Source of the DNA: a virus
Taxonomy: Duplodnaviria > Heunggongvirae > Uroviricota > Caudoviricetes
Direction: 5' to 3' (one strand)
IMG/VR virus record: IMGVR_UViG_3300026533_000003
Span: 37,772-101,771 of that record
DNA length: 64,000 nt
In this document: in pieces, positions 4,998-53,126 of the stretch
How the letters are laid out: each line of letters starts with the position of its first letter
Numbering within the stretch: the first letter of the stretch is position 1
Notes under the pieces: model-generated
The model's input: the letters and a program-made list of their open reading frames with translations, nothing else
What the model was told of the DNA's origin: nothing
Database searches by the model: none
Made by a program: the position numbers and the translations under genes

Positions 4998-6089
4998 TTA
5001 TCCTTGTGTGTTTAAATAGTTTGTGTAATAGTCTCTGATTATAGGGACTATAAATGCTCGTGCGTCTTTTAGGGATATAGAAGCCTCTGTTAGTAGGTCA
5101 AGATCTTCCTTAACAATATCTTTAAGTACCCATTTAATTACTTCACCCATATGCTTCATTTCTGTAGCGTTGGTCTCCGTGATTGCTTGAGTCAGCCTCC
5201 ATACAGGAGTTACCCTACTTGCCATGTTATCTAATAGCTCAGCCTGTTCGGATGTTAGGCTACGTTTAGGGTCTTTAGGAGTTTTAGGCTTACCACCATG
5301 TTTCTCACCCTTGACTTTAAGGCGCAAGACTTCATCGTTTACCACACAGTGGAATACTACTCCCTCACCAACGTTGTTAGGCTTGTCAAAGAATGCAGCA
5401 ATAGGGGATTTTTCCTCGATTGATAGCATTAGCTCTTCTAGTTTAGTATAAGATCCTTCTTTGTCGTTAAGATCAAGTGTGATGTTGTAGCGACCAAACT
5501 CTGCAAGGTTATATATAAAGTGGTCTTTGTGTTCTATACCAAATGTAGATACGTACGACTGTACTTCACCAGTTTCATTAGATATGATACGACATAGGTC
5601 GAATAGATAGAAAGCTTTGTCAGTACCTGAACAGGCTGCATTACCCCTTTGGATATTGCCACCTGCCCATTCACCATCTAGGACTATAGTTACTTCGTTA
5701 GTGTCTAGATAGCAAGTCTCAGCTACCTCGTCGAAGATAGTTTGGAAAGTAGACTTATGCTGCTCTACGAATTGAGCCATGCCGTTTTGGTCACCCAGCA
5801 CAGTACGAATAGAGTTACGGCCTTGTACCCAAATCTCACCACTAGAGTAGCATACTGCCATATTCTCTCCGTGAAGTTTCTCTGAGCCAAATAGCTCTAT
5901 TGTTGGCATGTCTGGTTTAAACTCTTGGAGTAGCTTGGCCTGGGCTTCAGTAGGCTTTTCTCCTAGGGTGGGGTCGTAGCTGGCATAGTCGTAGCGAGCT
6001 TGGTTGTCACTCATACGTGCTACCTGCTTATAGAAGTTAGGCCAGTTAGGGATGCTTCCGTAGTGAAGGTGTCTTCTAGCCGATTCCAT
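4998..6089 (-). CDS. RNA ligase, Rnl2-like
   Basis: Nucleotidyltransferase motif I 'EKLHGEN' matches T4 Rnl2 'EKIHGTN' (K-x-H-G-x-N). 363 aa. Confidence 0.65.
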   Translation of the reverse strand: MESARRHLHYGSIPNWPNFYKQVARMSDNQARYDYASYDPTLGEKPTEAQAKLLQEFKPDMPTIELFGSEKLHGENMAVCYSSGEIWVQGRNSIRTVLGDQNGMAQFVEQHKSTFQTIFDEVAETCYLDTNEVTIVLDGEWAGGNIQRGNAACSGTDKAFYLFDLCRIISNETGEVQSYVSTFGIEHKDHFIYNLAEFGRYNITLDLNDKEGSYTKLEELMLSIEEKSPIAAFFDKPNNVGEGVVFHCVVNDEVLRLKVKGEKHGGKPKTPKDPKRSLTSEQAELLDNMASRVTPVWRLTQAITETNATEMKHMGEVIKWVLKDIVKEDLDLLTEASISLKDARAFIVPIIRDYYTNYLNTQG

Positions 6090-10285: not shown

Positions 10286-11182
10286 TTATATTGCAGAGAA
10301 TAGTGATGATTTCACTAGGTCTCTTGATTTTGGTACATCTAGGAAGGCGTTTATAGCATACATGAGATCCATTATATACTCACGGCTTGCTCCTAGACGT
10401 TTAGCTTTCTCTATTGCTGCCATTGAGGTTTTCCATCGGTCACCCTCTTGGGCGTCATATGCAAATGAGAAGGTTGAGTAGGGGGATGCTAAGGCTTTTG
10501 CTGCCTCGGTAGGATTGATATCCATTGCCTCGTACTCAGCTTCCTTAGCAGCTACTTTAGCTTTGGCTATTGAGAGAGCTGATGTAGTATCAATTTTGAT
10601 ACCGTTAGTCTTAGATAAGGTTGTTCTACCTTCGTACCCAAATATTACTTGGGACATAGCTAGACGGTCTATCTTTCCCATACCAAGGGTTGTTGCAACT
10701 TCTTGTAGGTAGTACTTCCATTCATCTCTTGTTATTACCATAGGCCTATCAAGTTCTACAATTACTCTGTATTTGTATTGCTTAGATGGGTCAGAGGTTC
10801 TAGCGATATGGTGGTTTACGTTACCTAGTATTATATGCATTTCTTTATCTGATAAGATAGTTACATCTACATCGAACCATAGCCAGGTACAGCCTCCTAC
10901 TATATTGTTTACTCCCCTGATGCGGCCGGTTGCTGCTGGGTGCTTTACTTTATTGTAGGTAGCTTCTGACTCTAGTGCGAACTTGAAGTTGGAAAACCCT
11001 ACATCGTGCGTTAATAGATTACCAAGGTCCTCAAAAGTTACTTCGTGGTATTCGAAACCAGTTACACAGTTGAATGCTACGTTACCTTTCAGCTTTGCTA
11101 TACGGTCGGGGTGAGCGTTATTGGCTATTGCAGCCTGGATTGCTGTATTGTCTACGTGCTTTAGTGATGTGCCGTGTAACAT
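10286..11182 (-). CDS. putative primase-polymerase (AEP-like) domain protein
   Basis: 'WLWFDVDV' has the hhhDhD pattern, followed by an 'NHH' motif. Weak. Confidence 0.3.
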   Translation of the reverse strand: MLHGTSLKHVDNTAIQAAIANNAHPDRIAKLKGNVAFNCVTGFEYHEVTFEDLGNLLTHDVGFSNFKFALESEATYNKVKHPAATGRIRGVNNIVGGCTWLWFDVDVTILSDKEMHIILGNVNHHIARTSDPSKQYKYRVIVELDRPMVITRDEWKYYLQEVATTLGMGKIDRLAMSQVIFGYEGRTTLSKTNGIKIDTTSALSIAKAKVAAKEAEYEAMDINPTEAAKALASPYSTFSFAYDAQEGDRWKTSMAAIEKAKRLGASREYIMDLMYAINAFLDVPKSRDLVKSSLFSAI

Positions 11183-11268: not shown

Positions 11269-12666
11269 TCATGCTAGCTCATCATCGTAGGTTAACTCTT
11301 CCACGGCTTCCTGGAAGTGTATATACTTACCACTTACTGTATAGGTAGAGTCGTCAGCACTGGATGCAAGGTCTGCTAGTTCCGTGAGTCTTTTCTCAGA
11401 TCCCTGACCTGTAATGAATCCTAGTTTACGTAGTTGATGAAGGCTTATTGAGTGGAACCCTCCTTCTGCGTGCTTGTGCATGTACTTGATGAATAGCTCA
11501 TAAGGCTCTTTATCTAGTTCTATTTCAAAGGCTTCAAGGTCTGGGCAGTACATCTCAGAGAAACGTATTGCTTGTATGAAGTGATGCTTCTCTATCGTTA
11601 AGTCTCCCATTAGTATTGCTAAAGCGCCTGATAGTTTTAACGTCTTCCATTGGAGGTGGCGTCGGTGCAGTTTATGCATTGGATGCTTTTGGGAGATAGT
11701 TTGTGCTAACCACTTGTTGTAGTTATTGTAGTTACTGAATAAGTCCTTGACTTCCTTAGAAGCCTTTAATGGAGCAGGGACCGTAGAATCTACTAGTGCT
11801 GTGAACCACGGAGTGTAGTCTGCCCTGGCTGCTTTAACGTTCTTCTCTTCTTGCCTATCATGCTCTAGTGATAGTTCAATAGAGCTGAATCGTAATAATT
11901 CTGGCTCCTCGTCTACAAAGGAGAAGAAAGACCTACGAGATAACTTAGTAGAGAACTCTTCCTTGAACTTGCGCTTTACTTTCTCATCTTCTATAATATT
12001 GGTAGGTGATCCAAACATTAATGCTGAGTAGGGAAGGTTCTCAATAGGGTCTACCTGGTTGGCATCATCTTTAACTATCTTAGCTGGGATCTCCCCAGAG
12101 TCGTAGCCGATTGCTAAGGCTACAATATTTTCAGATAGGTCAGCATTAGATACTAACTCAGATCCTATCTCATCTACATACATGTATCCTGCACCTAAGT
12201 TACCTGCTTCTAGTGCTGCTAGGTGCTTCATAGTTCCTGGTAAGGTAGATACAGCTGCTTTTAGATTGCGAGGCTTAGAATGGTACTTACGCCAGTCCCT
12301 CTCTTGCTTCCCATCGTTTACAGCTTCTTGAATGGCGAGGGCTTTGGCGTGTATTTCTCTATATTCGTTTATCTTCTTATAGCCTTTGGATAGGACTGAA
12401 GATACACTCTTAATTGATACGCCTTTACCTTCACCAGATCCACCTATTAGGAATGAGATCAGGTTTACAGGTATCTTATCTTCTTTCCATAGGATAGGCT
12501 TACGGAGGTGGCTTGCAAATACTACTAGTTCAGTTGCTGCTAGAAGTACTTTCATCTTTTTAGGGATGTTACCTGGTATTACTTTAGAGACATCTTCTAG
12601 GATTTGTGGGTACTCTTGCTTGAAGCACCCTTCTTTTTCTAGGGATTGTCTATACATTTCTAGCAT
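11269..12666 (-). CDS. P-loop NTPase, replicative helicase-like (putative)
   Basis: Walker-A-like 'GGSGEGKG' and Walker-B-like 'GYMYVDEIG'; 465 aa, in the replication block. Confidence 0.35.
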   Translation of the reverse strand: MLEMYRQSLEKEGCFKQEYPQILEDVSKVIPGNIPKKMKVLLAATELVVFASHLRKPILWKEDKIPVNLISFLIGGSGEGKGVSIKSVSSVLSKGYKKINEYREIHAKALAIQEAVNDGKQERDWRKYHSKPRNLKAAVSTLPGTMKHLAALEAGNLGAGYMYVDEIGSELVSNADLSENIVALAIGYDSGEIPAKIVKDDANQVDPIENLPYSALMFGSPTNIIEDEKVKRKFKEEFSTKLSRRSFFSFVDEEPELLRFSSIELSLEHDRQEEKNVKAARADYTPWFTALVDSTVPAPLKASKEVKDLFSNYNNYNKWLAQTISQKHPMHKLHRRHLQWKTLKLSGALAILMGDLTIEKHHFIQAIRFSEMYCPDLEAFEIELDKEPYELFIKYMHKHAEGGFHSISLHQLRKLGFITGQGSEKRLTELADLASSADDSTYTVSGKYIHFQEAVEELTYDDELA

Positions 12667-12892
12667 TGGACTCCTTTTGGTTATACCAGTTAAAGGCTCG
12701 TCTTACTACGTAGCCCCTTACTAGGGAGACTAAAGTAAAGACTGCCGCTATTGTTATGTTCTCTGTTGGGGCTAGTACTATGTGCCAGTAGGAGAATACT
12801 ATCGGCTGTACTACTAGGATACTTAATAGTAGGCCTAGTGCTAGGTTGGTAGAGGTCTCTATTAAGGACATCCTCTTAGATTGACTAGCCAT
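12650..12892 (-). CDS. small membrane protein
   Basis: Two predicted TM helices; 80 aa. Confidence 0.3.
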   Translation of the reverse strand: MASQSKRMSLIETSTNLALGLLLSILVVQPIVFSYWHIVLAPTENITIAAVFTLVSLVRGYVVRRAFNWYNQKESNARNV

Positions 12893-13841
12893 TAACTACT
12901 GGTGCTAGAAGGGATGCTCTCTCAGATTTAGATATCACACTTTTACGTTCACGAGAGTATGAGTTACAGTCGTTACAGCGGTATCGTTTAAATTGAGATA
13001 CGTTAGTAACGGAGTAACCGTCTGGCGATAGCGAAGTTGATCCACAAGTTGTACAGCGGTGAGACAGTGAGCCTGAAGTAGTTACTACTGAGGGGTGAGA
13101 TTTATCCCAACCACGTAGCTTTAAGTATAGCTCTTCCGTTACTAGAACGTCTTGGATGTTATAGTGCTTCATCTCTGCCCAAGCTTCCTCGTTGCCAGCC
13201 ATACATTCTTTCCATAGCTCGAAGCCATTGAATTTCTTATGGGCTGACTTTTGTGAGGTACATAGTGCACCAGTTAGGTACTCTAGGGTGTTGCGCTCGA
13301 ATGAGAAATACTTCTTAGCTATTAGCATAGTATCTACTACACGGTACGGAGATGGAGGAGTTAGCCCATTTAAGATGGCATAGGCGTTAATCTTTTTCAT
13401 ATCAAACTTAGCTGCGTTATGGCCTACTACTATATCGGCTTCGTCTACTAGCTCCATTATTTCCGCTGTTATTTTAGAGTCGTCCCCTGTTCTAGTTTCG
13501 AAGTAGAAGATTTCATCTGAGTGCAGCCACTTTGCAGCCACAGTCATCATGTATGAACGGTCACCTTCTAGGCGCATCGGTTGGCCTATGTTTTGCTGCC
13601 AAAGTCCCCAGTGGTATGACATCATTGGAGCATTTTCTATATCTAAAGTAAGGATTTTTAAAGTGTCTCCTTGTGATGCGCTTTGCACTTGCTTCTTTGA
13701 TAGCCTAGCACCTAGTGCTTGCTTTGACACTTTGTAGTGCTTAGCTATTGATGCTTTAGTCTCTCCGTTTTCTATACGAGCTACTATTGAGGTCCAATTA
13801 TCGTTTAGGATCTTTGTAGTTTTTTTATGTGTTTTTGCCAT
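12885..13841 (-). CDS. DEDDh 3'-5' exonuclease (DnaQ/RNase T-like) with N-terminal HTH and C-terminal Cys cluster
   Basis: Exo I 'ILTLDIENAP', Exo II 'VVGHNAAKFD', Exo III 'HYNIQDV'; HTH 'ASIAKHYKVSKQAL'; C-terminal CxxC..CxxC. Confidence 0.6.
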   Translation of the reverse strand: MAKTHKKTTKILNDNWTSIVARIENGETKASIAKHYKVSKQALGARLSKKQVQSASQGDTLKILTLDIENAPMMSYHWGLWQQNIGQPMRLEGDRSYMMTVAAKWLHSDEIFYFETRTGDDSKITAEIMELVDEADIVVGHNAAKFDMKKINAYAILNGLTPPSPYRVVDTMLIAKKYFSFERNTLEYLTGALCTSQKSAHKKFNGFELWKECMAGNEEAWAEMKHYNIQDVLVTEELYLKLRGWDKSHPSVVTTSGSLSHRCTTCGSTSLSPDGYSVTNVSQFKRYRCNDCNSYSRERKSVISKSERASLLAPVVNG

Positions 13842-14702: not shown

Positions 14703-15088
14703 AGTAGATTTCCTTGAAGGTATCTTTGTATATAAGAGCTGATAGTTTCATGTGGTAGGGGATTGCGGGTGATGCCATGAAGGCATAATATTTATTTGTG
14801 TTACAGTGGCCTTTCTCCGCAGGCATTGGCGGTAGCTTTATAAGGTCTTCTAGGGAAAGTACTGTTAAGTTTGCATTTATACTGTTATATAGACTTACGG
14901 TTCCTGGTAAATTTTCTCGGTAGAGTGCTGTGTAGGTAGTTATAGCAAATATAAAATTCTCTAGGTTGTTTACTCCGTAGCTAATTATTTTAGCCCTTTT
15001 ATTACTGCTTGCTTTTCTTTCTTAGTTGAGGCTCTTTGTAGCTCTTCCAGTCTTATTGGAAGGGTGAATGAGTTTAATGGCTCTCGCA

Positions 15089-15358
15089 TTAGATACCTCC
15101 TTGTAGTTTTAATAGGAACTTTACAGCGTTGTAATCTTCTGAGACTAGTATCTCTGTTTTAGCTATTACCATTTCTGACTGAGTTGGCTCACTAGCAGGA
15201 GTGTATGGTCTATGGGCTGCAGGAGTACTTGTAGTTATTCTGGTTGTTAATTCATGCCCATCTCTTATCCTCTTTCTATAAGCGTCTACTTGTAGGATGG
15301 TTGATACGAGGATTAGTACTTTAGTATCGTCAAAATGTCTTGTCAGTTCTATGAACAT
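15089..15358 (-). CDS. hypothetical protein
   Basis: 89-aa ORF. Confidence 0.25.
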   Translation of the reverse strand: MFIELTRHFDDTKVLILVSTILQVDAYRKRIRDGHELTTRITTSTPAAHRPYTPASEPTQSEMVIAKTEILVSEDYNAVKFLLKLQGGI

Positions 15359-15371
15359 TGTGGTTCCTTTA

Positions 15372-16166
15372 TTAGTGACAGTCTTGCCAGCTGTTACCTA
15401 CTAGGACTTCTCCAGTGTAGGTACACTTCATTCCCAAGTAGTCAGAGACTTTCTTATAGGTGGATTGAAGGGTGTCGGCTAAGACTTGTTGGTGTTTGAT
15501 TTTTATTATTAGATCCACTTCGTCGTAGATACATGCTTGTTGGATGTAGTCTTTGCCGTGAGGGAATCCTCTACGGGCCATTTCTTCTTGGTAGAATACT
15601 AGGTAGTGCTTCATTGCTTCAGCACCCATTCCTTGGAGTTGGGAGTTAAGGGTAGCATGAGCGTGACGTACAGGTACCCTGCGGCCTCCAAACATCGTTA
15701 CGTACCCGTTTGCCTTGCCTTCCTTAGAGATGTCCGTGATGAGCTCCTTAAGGCCTTCTGTTGAGGAGATTAGGTCTGCTTGTACTTTGGCACCAAATAG
15801 TGCTTGGCGTATTAGGTGGTCTGTGAATGGTACTAGGGCGTCTTTCTTGATGGGGTAGAACTCTTTGCCATCCATTTTTGTTACACGACGGTAAAGCTTC
15901 TTCTTCATTGCGTCGAATTGCTTGCCTGTGTAGTCTGTAAACGGTTTATTACCGAGGAGAGTGTATCCTGTAAGAGTTGGTGAAGAGCCGTAGAGGAACC
16001 CAAACCAGAGCGGTTTTGCATCCCCTCTAGAGATTCCACAAGCTTTGGCGTTAAGGGAGTGAAGGTCTGTCCCGTTAGCTTTGCTGCCAGATGCGATAAT
16101 GTCGTTAAGTCTTCCACCATCATAGGGGTAGAGCATTTCGGCGAGGTTAACGTTTTCTTGTCCAGT
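15372..16166 (-). CDS. DNA polymerase (family A, T7-like) polymerase domain, 3' exon / C-terminal segment
   Basis: Motif B 'RGDAKPLWFGFLYG' and motif C 'ACIYDEVDL'. The in-frame stop-free extension upstream of the tracked ATG encodes 'TGQENVNLAEML', which aligns to T7 'ASGLELRCLAHFM' (motif A helix). Confidence 0.8.
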   Translation of the reverse strand, partial: TGQENVNLAEMLYPYDGGRLNDIIASGSKANGTDLHSLNAKACGISRGDAKPLWFGFLYGSSPTLTGYTLLGNKPFTDYTGKQFDAMKKKLYRRVTKMDGKEFYPIKKDALVPFTDHLIRQALFGAKVQADLISSTEGLKELITDISKEGKANGYVTMFGGRRVPVRHAHATLNSQLQGMGAEAMKHYLVFYQEEMARRGFPHGKDYIQQACIYDEVDLIIKIKHQQVLADTLQSTYKKVSDYLGMKCTYTGEVLVGNSWQDCH

Positions 16167-17042
16167 CAGGAGAAGTCAGTACCGACAAAGACCCATTGTT
16201 CTTTGGTAGTATGACTTCTTAAATCCTCCTTGATTGTACTAGATAAAAGAGGGTTAGCTAGTAATTGGTTGTATTCTTGTTCTGTGAGTTTCATGTAGTT
16301 CCTTTACTCGTTTGATTACCTGGGCTGTACAGTCTTTTGTTCGTAGCTCTGTATCACCTCCGTGGGTAAGTACAGCAGGGCCTTTATATAGTAGGTCCTT
16401 AGTATCTTGCAATAGTAGACGCTCCAGGTCGAAAGCGTCTTCACCATGTAGGCAGTGCACTTCTAGCAGTATTGCTATTGTGTTGCCATCTTTAGTATCT
16501 TTGGCGTACCTTTCCCTTACCGTCTTCTTAGTTATGCCTATTTTGAACAGCGAATTATTTACTAGTACTAGGTAAAGTATTGCGGGTGCTCCCACGTACT
16601 TAGTGCGGCCCCATCCTTTTTTAGTGTTAGCACACTCAGGACATCCCTTACCTCGTAAGTGATTGTTAGGGGATATTAGGAAGTCACCATGAGATTTACA
16701 GGTCACTTTAGACTTTTCACAGGACTTGGTGAAGACAGTAGATTCGTAGGTGTAGAGATTCATGTGTGTAGCGCTAGCACGCAGGATGTATTCCGCTTCA
16801 CTTGTAATAGGAGAGGGCTTGCATGTAGGGCAGTGCCCAGCTCTTAGATGATTCTTCGGAGTAGTGGTAAAGTCTCCGTGTGTTGGGCATGTGACTGTAA
16901 TCTCGTTACCCCTACCTGTGTAGTTAACCTTAGCGTACGTATACTCACCATTATGGAAATCCGTTGCTCTCTCTGCGAAGTTGTCTTTGTTTAATTTCAT
17001 ACAGTATTATACAGCCAGCATACTTAAAGCTTGCTTATACAG
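16167..17042 (-). mobile_element. intervening sequence (putative group I intron) in the DNA polymerase gene, carrying a homing-endonuclease ORF
   Basis: The polymerase sequence resumes in frame on the far side. The proposed 5' exon ends in U (…GAU AGU) and the insertion ends in G (…CUCCUG). Boundaries are inferred by alignment to T7 gp5, not verified. Confidence 0.45.
16254..17000 (-). CDS. homing endonuclease, GIY-YIG-like (T5orf172-type) with duplicated N-terminal Zn-finger modules
   Basis: Two repeats 'TCPTHGDF..NHLRAGHCPTC' and 'TCKSHGDF..NHLRGKGCPEC'. C-terminal 'AILYLVLVNNSLFKIGITKKTVRERY' fits the GIY..YIG pattern. It sits exactly between the two polymerase segments. Confidence 0.6.
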   Translation of the reverse strand: MKLNKDNFAERATDFHNGEYTYAKVNYTGRGNEITVTCPTHGDFTTTPKNHLRAGHCPTCKPSPITSEAEYILRASATHMNLYTYESTVFTKSCEKSKVTCKSHGDFLISPNNHLRGKGCPECANTKKGWGRTKYVGAPAILYLVLVNNSLFKIGITKKTVRERYAKDTKDGNTIAILLEVHCLHGEDAFDLERLLLQDTKDLLYKGPAVLTHGGDTELRTKDCTAQVIKRVKELHETHRTRIQPITS

Positions 17043-17570
17043 ACTATCTGGGACGTAGTAGTAACAGGGAGCTGAGAATAGTTCTCTAAACTCTTTTTGG
17101 GCTGGTATTTGTGCAAGGTTTGGGCTTGAGCTTGTAAATCTTCCTGTAACTGTACCGCACGTATCAACTCTTCCGTGGATACACCTGGTAGCTTCATTGT
17201 AGTGGTTGATAAGTGATCCATCTGCCCCTCCTATTTGGGATTGGTCTTTGGTTACTTTTAGGTATCGCCTAAGCATCTGACCTGAGGGATGGGTCATATT
17301 CTCTAGAGAGTCTACATCTACCTTTACTCCTCCCTTTGGGGTGAAGTATGGGAATTGGTACCCTAGGTCGTGCTTCATCCATAGCTTTATATGAGCACGA
17401 GAACCAGGGTTGAAGGCTTCGTACTTAATGTTTTGGTAGGTACCTTCACGGTGTACCATTACTGTTCGCATTGGTTGGTCAAACCATTTGTAGTTGCTTG
17501 CTGCCGGCATACGGAACTTACCGTTTTTAAGTATCTTAGACCCCGGGATTGTGTAAGGCTTTAGTAGCAT
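17043..17570 (-). CDS. DNA polymerase (family A) polymerase domain, 5' exon / N-terminal segment
   Basis: 'KYEAFNPGSRAHIK' aligns to T7 'FNPSSRDHIQ'; 'GTVTGRFTSSSPNLAQIP' aligns to T7 'GAVTGRATHAFPNLAQIP'. The tracked ORF runs on to 17007 ('DSLYKQALSMLAV*'), which is interpreted as readthrough into the intron. Confidence 0.75.
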
Positions 17571-17844
17571 CTTTGCTCCTATTTATGTGATAGTTGGCCG
17601 CACTTTTCTTGTTGCTAAGGCTGTGCTTTGTTGCGTGTGTTAGTGTGGGTCTAATCTCTAGAGACATTACCTCTGAGATAAGGTCTATATAGAATAGGTT
17701 GATGTAAGACTTCTCTAGTGGGGGCTTACCCGTTGCTTCTCTTAGCATTTTTAGTTCAAGGGATAGTACTAGGCTCTCTGCCTCTGCGATAGAGGTGAGG
17801 GCTTTGATTTCTTGTAGGTAGATTGCTTTGTTAAAGGCATTCAC
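17536..17844 (-). CDS. small protein, MNDF/MNAF-N-terminus paralog family
   Basis: N-terminus 'MNAFNKAIYLQEIKAL' is shared with at least six other small ORFs in this window. Confidence 0.4.
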   Translation of the reverse strand: MNAFNKAIYLQEIKALTSIAEAESLVLSLELKMLREATGKPPLEKSYINLFYIDLISEVMSLEIRPTLTHATKHSLSNKKSAANYHINRSKDATKALHNPGV

Positions 17845-18625
17845 TTAATACCCTTTTGGTACGAGTCTCTACTGCGGTTAGTAGATCTTTTACTTGCTCT
17901 AATTGCTTGAATAGTGGTATCTCTAGTAAGGACTTGTCTTTTACTGTTGCTGCGTATTCGTAGCAGTTGTCGAGGATATCTTCTATTATAGTGTAGTGAA
18001 TCTTCTCTGGCATGTGGAGCTTTAAATACTCTATCTCTAAGACCTGTCGTGGCTGAGTTATTCCTGTAACTTTAGCGCTTTCATCTACTTCATCAGCACC
18101 TCTTAAGTAAGGTATTAAACCATTACCGTCCATTAGAGCGTTAATGTTTGCAAATCCTGCCGACTGCCTTAGCATATATCTCATTTTAAAGGGGTTAGTA
18201 TCCTCTCCGAATGATATTGCTAAGTTACGGATACTGTCTACTTGTAATGTTGAAGGGGCTAGTGTTGTGCAGAACTCAAATACATCTAGGTACTCTTCGC
18301 GGGTGGTTGTCTTATCAGCCATCATATGTGTCAGTAAGGTCTTGTGGTAACTTGTGATTTTAGTAGTAACCTCTCGTATAGGAGGTACAATGGATCTCCA
18401 CTCTGTGATGAGTCTGCTTACACACTTATAGATGTACTTACCTCCCATTATACCCTCCTTTTTATATGTAGATGGTAACAAGTTAGTATATTTACGTATT
18501 AGTTCATTCTGCTTCTTGGCTGTTTTGCAAGTAGCTATCTCTTCAATATCTATTTTGTATTGAAATGCATTCATTCGTCTAGTCTCCATATATTGTCTGG
18601 ACCGCATGAGAAGTATTCGTTCCAT
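17831..18625 (-). CDS. protein of the MNDF/MNAF family (longer member; likely starts at internal 'MNAFQYKIDIEEIA')
   Basis: Internal Met followed by the family N-terminal motif. No polymerase motifs detected. Confidence 0.35.
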   Translation of the reverse strand: MERILLMRSRQYMETRRMNAFQYKIDIEEIATCKTAKKQNELIRKYTNLLPSTYKKEGIMGGKYIYKCVSRLITEWRSIVPPIREVTTKITSYHKTLLTHMMADKTTTREEYLDVFEFCTTLAPSTLQVDSIRNLAISFGEDTNPFKMRYMLRQSAGFANINALMDGNGLIPYLRGADEVDESAKVTGITQPRQVLEIEYLKLHMPEKIHYTIIEDILDNCYEYAATVKDKSLLEIPLFKQLEQVKDLLTAVETRTKRVLSECL

Positions 18626-18822: not shown

Positions 18823-20319
18823 TTATACCATTAAGATATCAGTTGTGCCTTTCACTTTCATAGGGTTGTTCTCACAACATACGAAGAAGGTTGATAGGTT
18901 CCTTAGACGAGGGTGTTTAGCCCACTCTTGAGGAATGTCTGAGTAGTTATCAGAGTAAGATAGGAAGATAGTTTTGTTAAGGTCCTTAACGTTGTTATCT
19001 ATCCAGTCGAATACATCTGAGTGGCTAGTGCCTCCTACTACGAATCTAGTTGCTAAGGCTTCTTTGAATTGCTTGTTTTCTGCAATATCATAGTCACTTT
19101 CTAATACGAATTCCTTAACTATACGGGTATCGTGGATAAGCACTGTTAGTTTAGTTATCTGCTTAGATACATCTTCCATTAGGTATAGGAGACGCTGCAA
19201 GGCCTCTGTGGATACTGAGCCTGAGTGATCTACTGATAGTACTAGTTCTAGTTTGGTATCGAAGAATTGCTTCTTAGGTGCCTTATAGATACGACGGTAG
19301 GTATTGTTAAGGTTAGCCCAGTTTGTGCTGTAGTCGTGAGTCATGTAATAGACTTGGCGTTTGAATGAGGCCTTTATCTTCTTGAACCAACCTGTCTCTA
19401 CTTTTATAGATCCGAATAGGGAGTTCATAAGTTTCCCGGCTGTTGTGCCTTTAGTGTTTGTTTGGATTACATCTTGGATTGCTTCGGATAGGTCTGACAT
19501 TGCTGTGTCCAGGTCGTCTACTGAGGTGTCGGTTGCTTTAGTTTTAGCACTTTTACCTCCGTCTTCGTCAGTAGCGTCCCCCTCGTTACCACCGGGATTG
19601 GTTGGTTGAGTAGTTTCTTTACCGTCGAACTCTACTTTGGACATACAGTTAGATACTTGAGTAACTTTAGGTTGCTCGGCACCTTCTTTTAGTAGTTTAA
19701 GGATCTCTATATCGGATAGTTGGTCTTTATGGTATTGGGCATTATATAGGCCTATAGGCTCTATGGTACTCCAGTGAGACTTCAGCTGAGATGCCATAAA
19801 GAGATCTTTTATGCTGTAGTTGATTGCGTAGTCCTCTGCGATATTGACTACTTGGTGAGGGTCTTGTAGGCCATCAGCTATTCGTAACATCATAGTGTTG
19901 TAGCCGCTAGTTATATGCTTACGGATAATATGCTGTAGCTCATGCATATATACAAAGGCAAAGAATACACCATGCCGCTCCATGTGACGCGCTATAGTTT
20001 TTAGTTCGGTTTCATTATGGTATAGGAATTTAAAGTGTACCTCCACATGGTTACCCATCTCTACATACGCTCCAAAGTAGTTCATAAATGTTTTTAACTC
20101 TTTGTCTAGTTTTGGAAGTGGGGCGTTAGTTTGCTCAATTGTTACCTTTACTGGCAGCTTAAGGAATAGTCCTGTACTTAGACCAGCTGTCTTAGTCTTA
20201 CCTAGTAGCAGGTTAGTGTTCTTGGCAATTTCTTTATATACAAAGTCTTCTGCTGTTTTTATAAATTCTGGTATTGTCATATTGGTTCCTTTAATAATTT
20301 GGTAGTGTAGTCTTTTCAA
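18823..20319 (-). CDS. vWA-domain protein with HExxH metallopeptidase-like motif (partner of the MoxR-like ATPase; CobT/ViaA-like)
   Basis: C-terminal MIDAS motif 'LVLSVDHSGSV' (DxSxS); 'MHELQH' zincin-like motif; acidic low-complexity linker; 498 aa. Confidence 0.65.
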   Translation of the reverse strand: MKRLHYQIIKGTNMTIPEFIKTAEDFVYKEIAKNTNLLLGKTKTAGLSTGLFLKLPVKVTIEQTNAPLPKLDKELKTFMNYFGAYVEMGNHVEVHFKFLYHNETELKTIARHMERHGVFFAFVYMHELQHIIRKHITSGYNTMMLRIADGLQDPHQVVNIAEDYAINYSIKDLFMASQLKSHWSTIEPIGLYNAQYHKDQLSDIEILKLLKEGAEQPKVTQVSNCMSKVEFDGKETTQPTNPGGNEGDATDEDGGKSAKTKATDTSVDDLDTAMSDLSEAIQDVIQTNTKGTTAGKLMNSLFGSIKVETGWFKKIKASFKRQVYYMTHDYSTNWANLNNTYRRIYKAPKKQFFDTKLELVLSVDHSGSVSTEALQRLLYLMEDVSKQITKLTVLIHDTRIVKEFVLESDYDIAENKQFKEALATRFVVGGTSHSDVFDWIDNNVKDLNKTIFLSYSDNYSDIPQEWAKHPRLRNLSTFFVCCENNPMKVKGTTDILMV

Positions 20320-25668: not shown

Positions 25669-26463
25669 TTACCATACAGGTATATAGTTGTTGTTAGGAA
25701 GATACTTTCGTACCTTACTGGGTTTCTTATAGGTCTTCTCTTGTCCGTCTTTTAACCATTTAGGTTTAAAGATTAATGAGAGTTGACGAGCTAGTTCTGT
25801 TTTCTCAGTAAGCAACGCTGTGTTTAATGCCCTGGCTTTCACTATGTCTAAATGAAAACCAAGTGCTGTTTGCTCTGCTATTATACTTGCCGCTTTGTGC
25901 TCAATATCTACCACTGCCTCTATAGGAAAGTTAGACTTAGCTAATAGGAATAGTAGTAATCTGGAAGTTAGGCTCACATCCTGGTTACAGTATATGGCCA
26001 TCTCTCTGTTGAGGTGTGAGAAGTCTTCGTAATCTATCTTGAAGTCTCCCATACGTTGTCCAAATGCTTTGGCTGAGTAGGAGCCGAATAGTTTCTTATC
26101 CACGCCAAGGTCACCATCCATTGCAAACAGGTCATCTTTAGAGAAGACTATTTTCGCAAGGATTAAAGTGTCGAGAGGAGTGGATACTATGTCGGTACCT
26201 GCTAGTTTCTGCATCATTGGTACGTCATACCCCATGATGTTATGACCTGCGTTGTAGTCACAAGTGTTTATAAGTGTTACAGCTTGCATTATGCTACCGT
26301 GTGAGTAAGGTACCCAGTGTATGGTGAATATCTTAGCAGGTTCGATTATAACTTCGTCTCTTACTATCTCCACCGACACACAGAATATCTTTGTACTGGG
26401 TATCCAGTCTGCTTCGATATCCCAAACGGCAATGGTTTTTCCTTTAAGCCATTCAGGTATCAT
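25669..26463 (-). CDS. DEDDy 3'-5' exonuclease (DNA polymerase I proofreading-domain homolog, encoded as a separate gene)
   Basis: Exo I 'IAVWDIEADW', Exo II 'NIMGYDVPMM', Exo III 'YCNQDVSLT'; 264 aa. Roughly 8 kb separates it from the polymerase-domain gene. Confidence 0.7.
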   Translation of the reverse strand: MIPEWLKGKTIAVWDIEADWIPSTKIFCVSVEIVRDEVIIEPAKIFTIHWVPYSHGSIMQAVTLINTCDYNAGHNIMGYDVPMMQKLAGTDIVSTPLDTLILAKIVFSKDDLFAMDGDLGVDKKLFGSYSAKAFGQRMGDFKIDYEDFSHLNREMAIYCNQDVSLTSRLLLFLLAKSNFPIEAVVDIEHKAASIIAEQTALGFHLDIVKARALNTALLTEKTELARQLSLIFKPKWLKDGQEKTYKKPSKVRKYLPNNNYIPVW

Positions 26464-44234: not shown

Positions 44235-44498
44235 TTATTTGTTACGGTTTAAGTTATAAAGGAATATAACTGCCTCTGCGGTTATTTGTGTTACTGGTTC
44301 CTTCTTAGGGTTGTGACAGTTATCACTACTGTATAGTATTTCTGTGCCTCTTAAGACTAAGTAAGGTTCGGTGGTATGTTTATAGGTAGTTTCTCCTTCT
44401 ACCCAGTGATACCCTTCCTCGAAGGCTATATCTTGTATGACGAGTGAAGTGTCAGGAGTTACCTTAATCATACTATTGTTAGTTAGCACTTTAGGCAT
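44235..44498 (-). CDS. ssRNAP internal fragment (87 aa, shifted frame)
   Basis: Lies between two RNAP fragments in a different frame; 'VLTNNSMIKVTPDTSLVIQ' aligns loosely to T7 'INGTDNEVVTVTDENTGEI'. Its start overlaps the upstream stop (ATGCCTAA). Confidence 0.5.
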   Translation of the reverse strand: MPKVLTNNSMIKVTPDTSLVIQDIAFEEGYHWVEGETTYKHTTEPYLVLRGTEILYSSDNCHNPKKEPVTQITAEAVIFLYNLNRNK

Positions 44499-45303
44499 TT
44501 GCTAGTTCTCTTTCAAGTTCTAGTATTTTCTCATTTGCTTCATCAGTCATCTCACGAATGATATGCGGGTTGACATTAGAATTAGCCCCTCCTACTGTAC
44601 ACCCTGCCATCGCTGACATTAGTTGAATTCCCGAAGCTGTGGCATCGAAGCCGACACGGTGATTAATAGGTTTACACAATATTACACCATTGTTATAGGC
44701 TAGTATTGCTTTGATGAATAGTTCTTGGTCATCGGCTCTATGAGCTTCAGCTAGCATTTGAGTTTCATCAAGAGTCCCATTAAGGAATATATTCTTGATT
44801 AAGCGGTTGGCTCTAGTTATTCTTTCGAAATAAGTTAGCTTATCGTAGCCGTAAGTGTTTGCTATATCTAACTTAAGGTATTTGATGCCTTTAGTAGTTA
44901 GTTCCTCACTGTGTTTGTAGCTGAGCATAGCTTTGCGGTAGGCATTGCCTTGAGGATTACAATGGTACCCCTGGCTATAGCTACGGCCTCTTTTATCGTA
45001 TTTCCACCCGAAGAAGAAGCTGTTGTTGTTCTCTAGTAGGTAATCTATTACTACATCAGTTTCTCGTTGTAGGTGGATGAAGCCTTTCTCTCTCTCTGAT
45101 ACCTCTAGCGGAGTTAAGTCCTCTGAGGGTGCCTTTAGAGTGTCTTTAATGTATGGTAGAATTTCTTCATCAATTTCCCACTCTACTGCTTGAAGAATGT
45201 TTAGGAAGTCAGTGTTGATGTGTTGACCTTTGTCGTTGCCTTTACCGAGTATTGGGCTGTCGTTTTCTTTTGTTAATAGGTGGCTAGTGATTTTCTTATT
45301 CAT
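44491..45303 (-). CDS. ssRNAP middle fragment
   Basis: 'WKYDKRGRSYSQGYHCNPQGNAYRKAML' aligns to T7 'DWRGRVYAVSMFNPQGNDMTKGLL'. 'FDATASGIQLMSAMAGCTVGGANSNVNP' aligns to '[28 protein letters not shown]'. Confidence 0.8.
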   Translation of the reverse strand: MNKKITSHLLTKENDSPILGKGNDKGQHINTDFLNILQAVEWEIDEEILPYIKDTLKAPSEDLTPLEVSEREKGFIHLQRETDVVIDYLLENNNSFFFGWKYDKRGRSYSQGYHCNPQGNAYRKAMLSYKHSEELTTKGIKYLKLDIANTYGYDKLTYFERITRANRLIKNIFLNGTLDETQMLAEAHRADDQELFIKAILAYNNGVILCKPINHRVGFDATASGIQLMSAMAGCTVGGANSNVNPHIIREMTDEANEKILELERELANA

Positions 45304-52631: not shown

Positions 52632-53126
52632 TTTAAGGTTATTACGAACTACTCTAAGGTTAATATAATAGTGACAACTTATGCCAGATACAGTACACTT
52701 AAGGTTTAATTAATAGTACCTCACTATAATTACACCACTCCTAAGCAAGAGACCAAAGGCACAGAGGGTAGACTCTATAACCTACAATGATACCTCCCTA
52801 GGTTGTAACTAAGGGCGAGGGACTAGGCAATCTTAGTCAGGTACTTACAGAGGTCAATCAAGTCACCCGCGTAGCAAAGACTTGATACTAATAGGAGCTA
52901 CCAGGCTCCACTTCATATTGAGGTATAGCACAATGGCAGTGCAACTGGTTTTGGTCCAGTTTACGGGGGGATCGTTACCTCCTACCTCATCCACACATCA
53001 GCATTAACTCCAACATATTTGTATTAACTACCCTAAAACCTACATAACTACAACTATACCTTATTTATTAAACTACACTTAAGCCAACTATAGCTATCAT
53101 GCGTTAAATTTTAAAGGATGTAACTA

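Follow-up and report, generated by a model that had tools for sequence, protein, structure and literature searches.

Bacteria and phages offer essentially one well-studied natural model of efficient translational bypassing, gene 60 of phage T4 and its homologues. The primary work on the T4 mobA/gene 60 cassette is reportedly that of Bonocora et al. 2011, and exit-side pairing has been proposed to drive forward movement in gene 60 bypassing. In this cassette the split gene has conserved tails, the insert bears host codons, a stop codon follows the take-off codon, the take-off and landing codons match, a Shine-Dalgarno element is present, and the endonuclease can be swapped or lost (10.1101/2022.08.31.505936). 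Bypassing of gene 60 protects against MobA cleavage, the gene 60 gap breaking the target, and the MobA/gene 60 element of topoisomerase genes is the one known case of bypassing borne by a homing endonuclease gene (HEG) (10.1101/2022.08.31.505936). Here we analyze a 64,000-nucleotide (nt) stretch of the virus record IMGVR_UViG_3300026533_000003, hereafter the window, in which a family A DNA polymerase gene is interrupted by a predicted mobile endonuclease cassette and in which the C-terminal half of the enzyme is probably made through a short programmed "stop-hop" within motif A.

Other described systems share parts of this arrangement. Group I introns are present in the DNA polymerase genes of phages SPO1 and T7-like PhiI. 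In a phage bypass system with a UUA trigger, separate open reading frames (ORFs) are joined by bypassing at a slow A-site codon with mRNA structure nearing the landing codon, as would be the case here, but that trigger is a rare sense codon in a different gene, and the system lacks an endonuclease cassette. In synthetic Escherichia coli stop-hops, matched codons flank a stop codon and peptidyl-tRNA shifts onto the second of them, 8-9 nt being decoded as one amino acid (Weiss et al. 1987, as summarized by Atkins et al. 2016, PMC5009743). No natural in-frame stop-hop is known according to that review, which calls shorter matched-codon counterparts "long presumed" (PMC5009743). The DNA polymerase gene of the N4-like Vibrio phages JA1 and VchO139-I is split by an HNH endonuclease gene (PMC3670811). 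As in that gene and in the MobE-split nrdA of Aeromonas phage Aeh1, the window has a free-standing endonuclease gene within an essential gene, with halves that carry insert-derived tails and are thought to assemble, and its phage is also N4-like. Unlike those genes, the window polymerase has a second interruption that would need recoding, which has not been reported for them. We found no published report of this polymerase cassette in the literature searched.

A predicted mobile cassette interrupts the polymerase gene before motif A

A preliminary description made from the letters of this DNA had proposed three ORFs at the polymerase locus, and all three are present on the minus strand, as are all genes between 12.8 and 20.3 kilobases (kb) of the window; coordinates below are in window numbering and refer to this strand unless stated otherwise. 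Its assignment of 17570..17007 to the N-terminal part of a family A polymerase is borne out by a match of this 187-amino-acid (aa) ORF to Pfam DNA_pol_A above the cut-off (6.7e-14). The ORF at 16136..15372, a mechanical ORF of 254 aa from ATG 16136, is the C-terminal part with motifs B and C that it was taken for, with a Pfam match below the curated cut-off (8.8e-06) and a match to the PHROG DNA polymerase I profile (8e-29). The extension upstream of it, GQENVNLAEML, is likewise the helix after motif A, and the entire C-half remainder, from GQENVNLAEML... to ...SWQDCH and its stop codon (16163..15372), holds the motif A Glu in addition to motifs B and C. The merged N- and C-terminal sequence aligns with T7 gp5 across the junction (6.7e-25), and as a query it retrieved about 20 uninterrupted relatives of 440-460 aa, with 60-73% identity and 100% coverage, together with many half-length proteins. 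A megablast of 15000-18000 against phage records gave no match, and with protein identities of only 28% to the nearest cultured phages, no annotated relative was usable.

Comparison with the intact relatives located the true break points. These relatives read ...EFRELFSAP-xGWSF(I/V)GTDFS-GQENVNLAEMLYPYD..., the spacing from "AP" to "GQEN" is exactly 33 nt in almost every intact locus examined at the DNA level, and the motif A spacing D-x4-E is invariant among those aligned. The N-half of the window follows this sequence over residues 1-168 (17570..17067), ending ...FSAP, where the alignment with intact relatives also ends. Residues 169-187, CYYYVPDSLYKQALSMLAV (17066..17010), form a C-terminal tail supplied by the insert, and the stop codon follows at 17009..17007. 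Homologous tails end the N-halves of L001, L002, L004, L016, L017 and L053 (relatives are given by their L numbers), with codons that differ synonymously. In relatives the tails include TYYHIPNELY, TFYTIPNTLY, VYFHVEDKLY and VYYEIPDDLW, and the Asp is often absent (PNE, PNT). The preliminary description had read "YYYVPDS" within this tail as motif A, an assignment that these tails contradict. The true motif A strand, EQWVFVGTDFS (16201..16169), is borne by the insert and lies at the end of a 42-aa ORF of which that description made no use. With motif A misplaced, both the start of the C-half at ATG 16294 and a second break inside motif A were missed.

This 42-aa leader ORF (16294..16166 with its stop codon) overlaps the 3' end of the endonuclease gene and is preceded, from our reading of the sequence, by the Shine-Dalgarno sequence AAAGGAA (16305..16299), 4 nt ahead of ATG 16294. 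Its first 31 aa, MKLTEQEYNQLLANPLLSSTIKEDLRSHTTK (16294..16202), form an N-terminal extension to the motif A strand. Leader homologues number more than 20, as mini-ORFs and as in-frame C-halves, with identities of 26-54%; the Shine-Dalgarno sequence and ATG are present in every relative, with GAGG or AAGGAG at that place. Gene callers render such loci as a polymerase fragment starting at "MLYPYD" and an orphan ORF of 39-44 aa. Relative to intact genes, the window thus contains an insert of 865 nt (17066..16202), which holds the 19-aa tail, an intact 248-aa endonuclease gene and the 31-aa leader with its ribosome-binding site, plus 5 extra nt at 16168..16164. The earlier proposal that the gene becomes continuous upon removal of 16167..17042 therefore does not hold.

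The gene inside the insert (17000..16254) is free-standing and homing-endonuclease-like, matching phrog_681 "endonuclease" (4.1e-40). The duplicated Zn modules previously noted in it were recovered as an internal repeat of a C-x2-H...C-x2-C module (residues 10-60 versus 73-123). Residues 149-202 weakly match T5orf172, which we take to be a branch of the GIY-YIG superfamily, at an E value of 0.0068 and 17.3 bits, under the Pfam cut-off of 20, and there are weak Pfam matches to DUF723, DUF4379 and CapR; the homologous endonucleases of L050, L052 and L056 are also flagged as DUF723. Over its full length, the window enzyme is 56% identical to the same-site enzyme of L050, and it is 52% identical to that of L016 over 172 aligned residues. 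The same slot holds the window type in L016, L050, L052 and L056, an endonuclease VII in L004 and an ORF without a family match in L001, whereas L002 and L053 have an empty slot; all of them keep the tail and leader. The inserts of L002/L003 and L053, without an endonuclease, are about 160 nt or less. As with T4 mobA/gene 60, replacement or loss of the endonuclease leaves the other parts in place, but the enzymes here are of the Zn-module/T5orf172 type, or endonuclease VII in L004, unlike MobA.

Filled and empty alleles could be compared directly. L001 (filled) and L019 (empty) share 91-93% DNA identity on both flanks; their homology ends after GCA CCA ACT (A-P-T) and restarts at ACT GAC TTC, which is the landing codon described below. 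Of the 15 nt in the W-S-F-V-G copy of the cassette, 4 do not match those of the host copy. As in MobA- and MobE-like systems, an endonuclease ORF lies between two gene halves, the tails are translated and conserved, and both filled and empty alleles occur. From its sequence, the interruption is a predicted mobile endonuclease cassette in a family A polymerase gene, just before the motif A β-strand. The likeness to T4 mobA/gene 60 extends to the splitting of an essential replication gene at one conserved site beside a metal-binding motif, to conserved C- and N-terminal extensions and to the cassette's own copy of host codons up to take-off. The split gene encodes a family A DNA polymerase in the window and the topoisomerase large subunit in T4, and the leaders have no sequence similarity.

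Such a cassette would split the polymerase gene into two translation units. The N-half would end in the 19-aa cassette-encoded tail, and the C-half would start at the cassette ATG 16294 with the 31-aa leader, followed by the cassette-borne strand EQWVFVGTDFS. Both halves would presumably assemble into an active enzyme, aided by the tail and leader.

A stop-and-resume arrangement recurs within motif A

In the window, GQENVNLAEML follows EQWVFVGTDFS in another frame, after TGA CT, and the motif A sequence TDFSGQE is seen only if the leader ORF and the downstream frame are joined. The proposed recoding site, TCC TGA CT (16171..16164), comprises a take-off codon TCC (Ser; 16171..16169), the stop codon TGA (16168..16166), a gap TG (16168..16167) and a landing triplet ACT (16166..16164), with decoding resuming at GGA 16163. 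When these 5 nt are skipped, the window reads ...VGTDFS-GQENVNL..., with the length and motif of intact relatives.

The same grammar, in which 2-5 nt giving rise to a stop codon stand between a take-off codon and a landing triplet, is common to 14 distinct sequences including the window. Eight sites require a shift of +5: take-off ACT, gap TA and landing ACT in L001 and L002; ACT, TA and GCT in L047 and L048; ACT, TA and GCA in L050; TCC, TA and ACT in L017; TCA, TG and ACT in L041; and TCC, TG and ACT in the window. Two require +6, L016 (ACT, TAA and ACA) and L036 (ACT, TAA and TCA), and three require +7, L051 (TCC, TAAG and TCT), L052 (TCT, TAGT and GCT) and L054 (CAA, TGAC and CGA). A single site, L053 (TTC, TAGAC and TTC), requires +8. 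A stop codon stands directly 3' of the take-off codon in 14/14 sequences, and in all 14 the joining of the take-off codon to the post-landing codon recreates the ancestral motif without adding or removing a residue. In L004, L034, L055 and L056, the leader is in frame with the polymerase without a gap.

These features resemble T4 mobA/gene 60 in that a stop follows the take-off codon, the landing triplet duplicates the take-off codon, here exactly or in part, and a Shine-Dalgarno-like element and RNA structure accompany them. They differ in scale, with a gap of 2-5 nt and a shift of 5-8 nt here versus a 50-nt gap in gene 60. L016 (ACU UAA ACA) and L036 have exactly the layout of the synthetic stop-hops; those were engineered and of low efficiency, whereas in these natural genes the layout is conserved and accompanied by AAGGAG and a hairpin.

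Searching 1.84 billion proteins with a profile returned about 18 such mini-ORFs of 39-44 aa, which fall into four end classes: ...GT*, ...GSDF*, ...GTDFS* (that of the window, with five other representatives) and ...GTDFSGQ*. A pattern scan of IMG/VR DNA for more cases gave two contigs only, both already in the set, and a scan of bacterial and archaeal genomes gave no match.

A different disruption of motif A was observed in L040, where ...KNEP TGA TFIGTDFSGQEN (about 1100-1200) places a TGA exactly at the codon of the conserved Trp. This gene is also split further upstream, at its TGRFTSSS motif, as in P0062 and P0064. The TGA could be a nonsense mutation, a UGA read as Trp or another form of recoding.

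A hairpin and an AAGGAG element accompany the take-off codon

Upstream of the take-off codon of the window lies a hairpin (16218..16172) with a 5' arm, GAAGUCAUACUACCAAAGA (16218..16200), and a 3' arm, UCUUUGUCGGUACUGACUUC (16191..16172), which can be extended by pairing of AGGA (16227..16224) with UCCU (16171..16168). Its folding energy is -20.3 kcal/mol, with z scores of -2.4 and -3.2 in two stretches and -1.5 in a 92-nt stretch. The 3' arm of a hairpin ends at or inside the take-off codon in 14/14 interrupted sequences, with energies of -17 to -30 kcal/mol and z scores of -1.7 to -6.8, versus -5 to -17 kcal/mol and z scores of +0.8 to -2.7 in four uninterrupted controls. The 5' arm varies by class, and the end of the stem tracks the take-off codon. 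For the window, L051 and L052, this arm carries AGAAGUC, from Arg-Ser codons, which pairs with GACUUCU, from Asp-Phe-Ser codons. In class A (n = 9), pairing in the inner helix reaches 91%, and four pairs have changes in both partners; a Val GTT to Ile ATT/ATC change, for instance, is matched by AAC to AAT/GAT. The covariation score of this class is 0.211 versus 0.167 after shuffling, and sliding the partners reduces pairing to 60% or less.

A Shine-Dalgarno-like AAGGAGG lies inside the leader of the window (16231..16225), 57 nt upstream of the end of the take-off codon. AAGGAG is present in 14/14 interrupted leaders, always as Lys-AAG Glu-GAG, and in 0/4 uninterrupted leaders. Its distance to the take-off codon is 45 nt in class A (9/9), 57 nt in class B, that of the window (3/3), 54 nt in L053 and 48 nt in L054. 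The placement of both signals is unlike that in T4 gene 60, where the take-off stem-loop lies within the gap and the element lies inside it; here the structure is 5' of the take-off codon and ends there, and the element is 5' of the hairpin.

We rejected an intrinsic terminator as an identity for this hairpin, which has no U-run after it. Rfam gave weak plus-strand matches to RsaE (25 bits) and rli61 (20 bits), far under their thresholds, at 16168-16287, opposite the leader hairpin; we read them as its reverse complement rather than as RNA genes.

The downstream part is constrained, and translation probably enters the site in the leader frame

The downstream part of the polymerase is under purifying selection between interrupted lineages, with nonsynonymous divergence (pN) of ~0.19 versus saturated synonymous divergence (pS) of ~0.77 for the window C-half and other interrupted relatives. 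In the cassette, the W-S-F-V-G copy varies at third codon positions and the alternative frame is not conserved, indicating that translation enters the site in the leader frame.

Starts that could serve the resume frame independently are scarce. There is no upstream start codon in this frame at 9/14 sites and none within 150 nt downstream at 5/14. The alternative-frame ATG of "A TGG", at the Trp codon, could provide a start in only 5/14 sequences, and in the window that frame is closed by TGA; we therefore rejected it. The ATG in "AEM" is used by gene callers without a Shine-Dalgarno sequence, and a start there loses the motif A Asp, Glu or both. Likewise, no Shine-Dalgarno sequence precedes window ATG 16136, and several relatives lack an equivalent Met, so this candidate was also rejected.

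Proposed mechanism

We propose that this endonuclease-split gene probably yields its C-half by a stop-hop as follows. The ribosome would translate the leader until TCC occupied the P site and UGA-C the A site. A C after a stop codon is a weak termination context, and termination at UGA-C would be slow. The hairpin would presumably re-form behind the ribosome, drawing the message through by a few nt, and may also deliver AAGGAG for docking on the anti-Shine-Dalgarno sequence, which would set the register. Peptidyl-tRNA (tRNA, transfer RNA) would then move forward 5 nt and re-pair with ACU, and decoding would resume at GGA to give an unbroken ...GTDFS-GQENVNL... C-half with the predicted junction peptide EQWVFVGTDFSGQENVNLAEMLYPYDGGR. 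In the carrier genome, the extra bases would probably break the endonuclease target in the motif A codons and shield it from cleavage. Such target-site immunity is consistent with L038 and L039, in which the leader is near-identical to that of L041 and a group I intron after DFSG replaces the gap.

Several points weigh against this mechanism. Take-off and landing triplets are identical or synonymous at only 5/14 sites, the others sharing two of three positions, and the poor match at these 9/14 weakens a hop that depends on re-pairing and lends support to other forms of recoding. In the window, UCC and ACU have only the middle base and a wobble-compatible third base in common, and the triplet match in general stems from codon duplication and is not independent evidence of re-pairing. 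Within its class, the window has the weakest hairpin (z -1.5 to -3.2 by stretch folded), and the covariation is modest, 8 of 500 shuffles of the 9 sequences reaching the observed score. At a linear distance of 45-57 nt from the site, AAGGAG is too far away for prfB- or dnaX-like action unless hairpin formation brings it closer. Both signals persist in L038 and L039 with an intron in place of the gap, and could be inherited features of the leader. With related sequences and a cassette that homing may spread, the 14/14 counts are not independent events, and the material is metagenomic DNA throughout. Bypassing in T4 has been proven experimentally, unlike here, where it is inferred from sequence.

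Alternative explanations

Another form of recoding at the same stop codon, either a -1 slip on C_UUC_UCC_UGA or out-of-frame A-site binding, is unlikely to account for the site. The window needs a net shift of -1, the pyrimidine run CUUCUCCU permits partial re-pairing one base back, and stops that are slow to decode are classical shift sites. Such recoding predicts one or two extra residues, e.g., DFS-LT-GQE, but two added residues would alter the invariant D-x4-E spacing. There is no X_XXY_YYZ slippery heptamer at the site, and L051 and L052, of the same class as the window, need +7 while others need +6 or +8; on these grounds we rejected classical -1 frameshifting. Because the shifts span all three frame relations, neither a single frameshift direction nor read-through could serve the whole family. 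Read-through and an altered genetic code were also rejected because all three stop codons are used at the site and most sites change frame as well. Quite unlikely, too, is a scheme without recoding, in which the leader yields a 42-aa mini-protein and a separate start at ATG 16136 gives a three-polypeptide polymerase plus the exonuclease subunit. The window has an in-frame ATG 30 nt past the landing codon, gene callers start the C-half there (P0023, P0035, P0044, P0047 and P0049), and some phage enzymes split by endonuclease genes are known to function as separate subunits. Such a start would nonetheless lose GQENVNLAE, including the motif A Glu; no start codon lies within 150 nt downstream in L036, L017, L041, L050 and L054, and L016, L036, L047 and L054 lack one upstream, although their downstream parts are conserved. 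This scheme also leaves unexplained why the resume frame begins exactly at the duplicated codon in 14/14 sequences.

We consider it very unlikely that the gene is a decaying pseudogene, inactivated by the cassette and a frameshift while another polymerase replicates the phage. The stop codon and frame change do lie within a catalytic motif, and L040 has its TGA at the Trp codon of the same motif, but both window halves are full length with all motifs intact, and the low pN against saturated pS holds between interrupted lineages. One precise grammar has been kept through deep divergence of the host gene and cassette, including the leaders, and no second polymerase domain was found among the scanned ORFs of the window, which is part of a genome. 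A sequencing or assembly error was rejected because the grammar recurs in independent assemblies from many samples. An extremely improbable alternative is that the insert is a group I intron carrying the endonuclease ORF and spliced to give one continuous polymerase. This was one of two options in the preliminary description; the other, an HEG-split gene with separate polypeptides, was essentially right. The N-half, endonuclease gene and C part share a frame, the segment 16167..17042 is 876 nt and hence a multiple of three, its candidate junction is preceded by U and ends in G, and real group I introns live in this polymerase family, including the one after DFSG in L038. However, that junction needs "YYYVPDS" as motif A, and the U and G rule fails at the true boundaries, ...GCT CCC / TGT... 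and ...ACC AAA / GAA CAA. The search with group I models proposed in the preliminary description gave no group I or group II core in the window insert (Rfam, including a 1-kb search at E up to 10), nor did RF00028 match the homologous inserts of seven relatives, L001, L002, L004, L016, L017 and L041 among them. This search works on such material, as RF00028 detects bona fide group I introns at other sites in relatives' polymerase genes at about 55-75 bits. In addition, only ~120 nt of the window insert lies outside the endonuclease ORF, L002 and L053 have inserts too short to fit this reading, and the insert ends are conserved as protein, the leader having its own Shine-Dalgarno sequence and ATG. 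An intein or split intein was likewise rejected, given that stop codons separate the ORFs, Pfam gave no Hint match, and the tail and leader comprise only 50 aa without the terminal residues.

The introns of relatives sit at motif B or after DFSG and not at AP/xGW. Those in motif B, at KPLWFGF/LYGSS, were found by RF00028 with 64-75 bits in L016 (3737-4033), L036 (295-597) and L048 (357-673), and another in L054 (about 2440-2720) was judged from sequence alone; the window has no intron at this site. L038 (1704-2033) and L039 have a group I intron directly after DFSG (54.8 bits) without an ORF, in an insert of ~348 nt. The introns of L016, L036, L048, L054 and L038 resemble the window insert in targeting the most conserved catalytic motifs and, as proposed for it, in disrupting endonuclease target sites, but that insert differs in lacking a ribozyme core and in having both ends translated.

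Implications

If the stop-hop is correct, this cassette may well represent a second, independent family of endonuclease-borne bypassing and the first natural short stop-hops (5-8 nt), driven by a hairpin and positioned by AAGGAG, with a gap that confers self-immunity. It would offer 14 or more natural variants, whose gaps of 2-5 nt span all three frame relations, and a compact signal set (stop codon, hairpin, AAGGAG and leader peptide) that could be mutated one by one. The family would then be a tractable system for learning what makes a ribosome leave a codon, how far exit-side folding reaches and whether re-pairing is needed, and would strengthen the view that recoding has been enlisted by selfish endonucleases to shield their own target sites.

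Other features of the window

The source of the window is an N4-like phage, and profile matches identify genes for an N4-like RNA polymerase, a primase, ribonucleotide reductase, a terminase and a separate exonuclease subunit. The last, a 3'-5' exonuclease subunit gene outside the insert (13841..12885), matches phrog_403 "DNA polymerase exonuclease subunit" (6.8e-97); fusion of the exonuclease domain to the polymerase is seen in some relatives, with lengths of 690-710 aa. A second exonuclease-like ORF of 264 aa (26463..25669) matches the polymerase exonuclease region (phrog_17, 1.4e-22; phrog_403, 2.6e-12).

Other genes may also be in pieces. Two adjacent ORFs, 12666..11269 and 11182..10286, match successive parts of the DNA primase profile phrog_2135 (13-431 and 455-589) and may be another split gene. 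A 270-aa ORF (45303..44491) covers positions 188-432 of the 505-position N4-like RNA polymerase profile, and that gene may be fragmented as well. An RNA ligase gene (6089..4998; phrog_548, 3e-36) is present; repair or joining at the RNA level was considered for the 5-nt interruption, but nothing ties RNA ligase to it. The window encodes tRNA-Arg (CCT) at 32306-32381 on the minus strand and tRNA-Gln (TTG) at 52919-52993 on the plus strand, neither being a Ser or Thr tRNA of relevance to the proposed hop. Upstream of the polymerase lies a 498-aa ORF (20319..18823) with a VWA-like DUF2201 domain and a match to phrog_1314, labelled HNH endonuclease, and a homologue of this ORF is also located upstream of the polymerase in L053.

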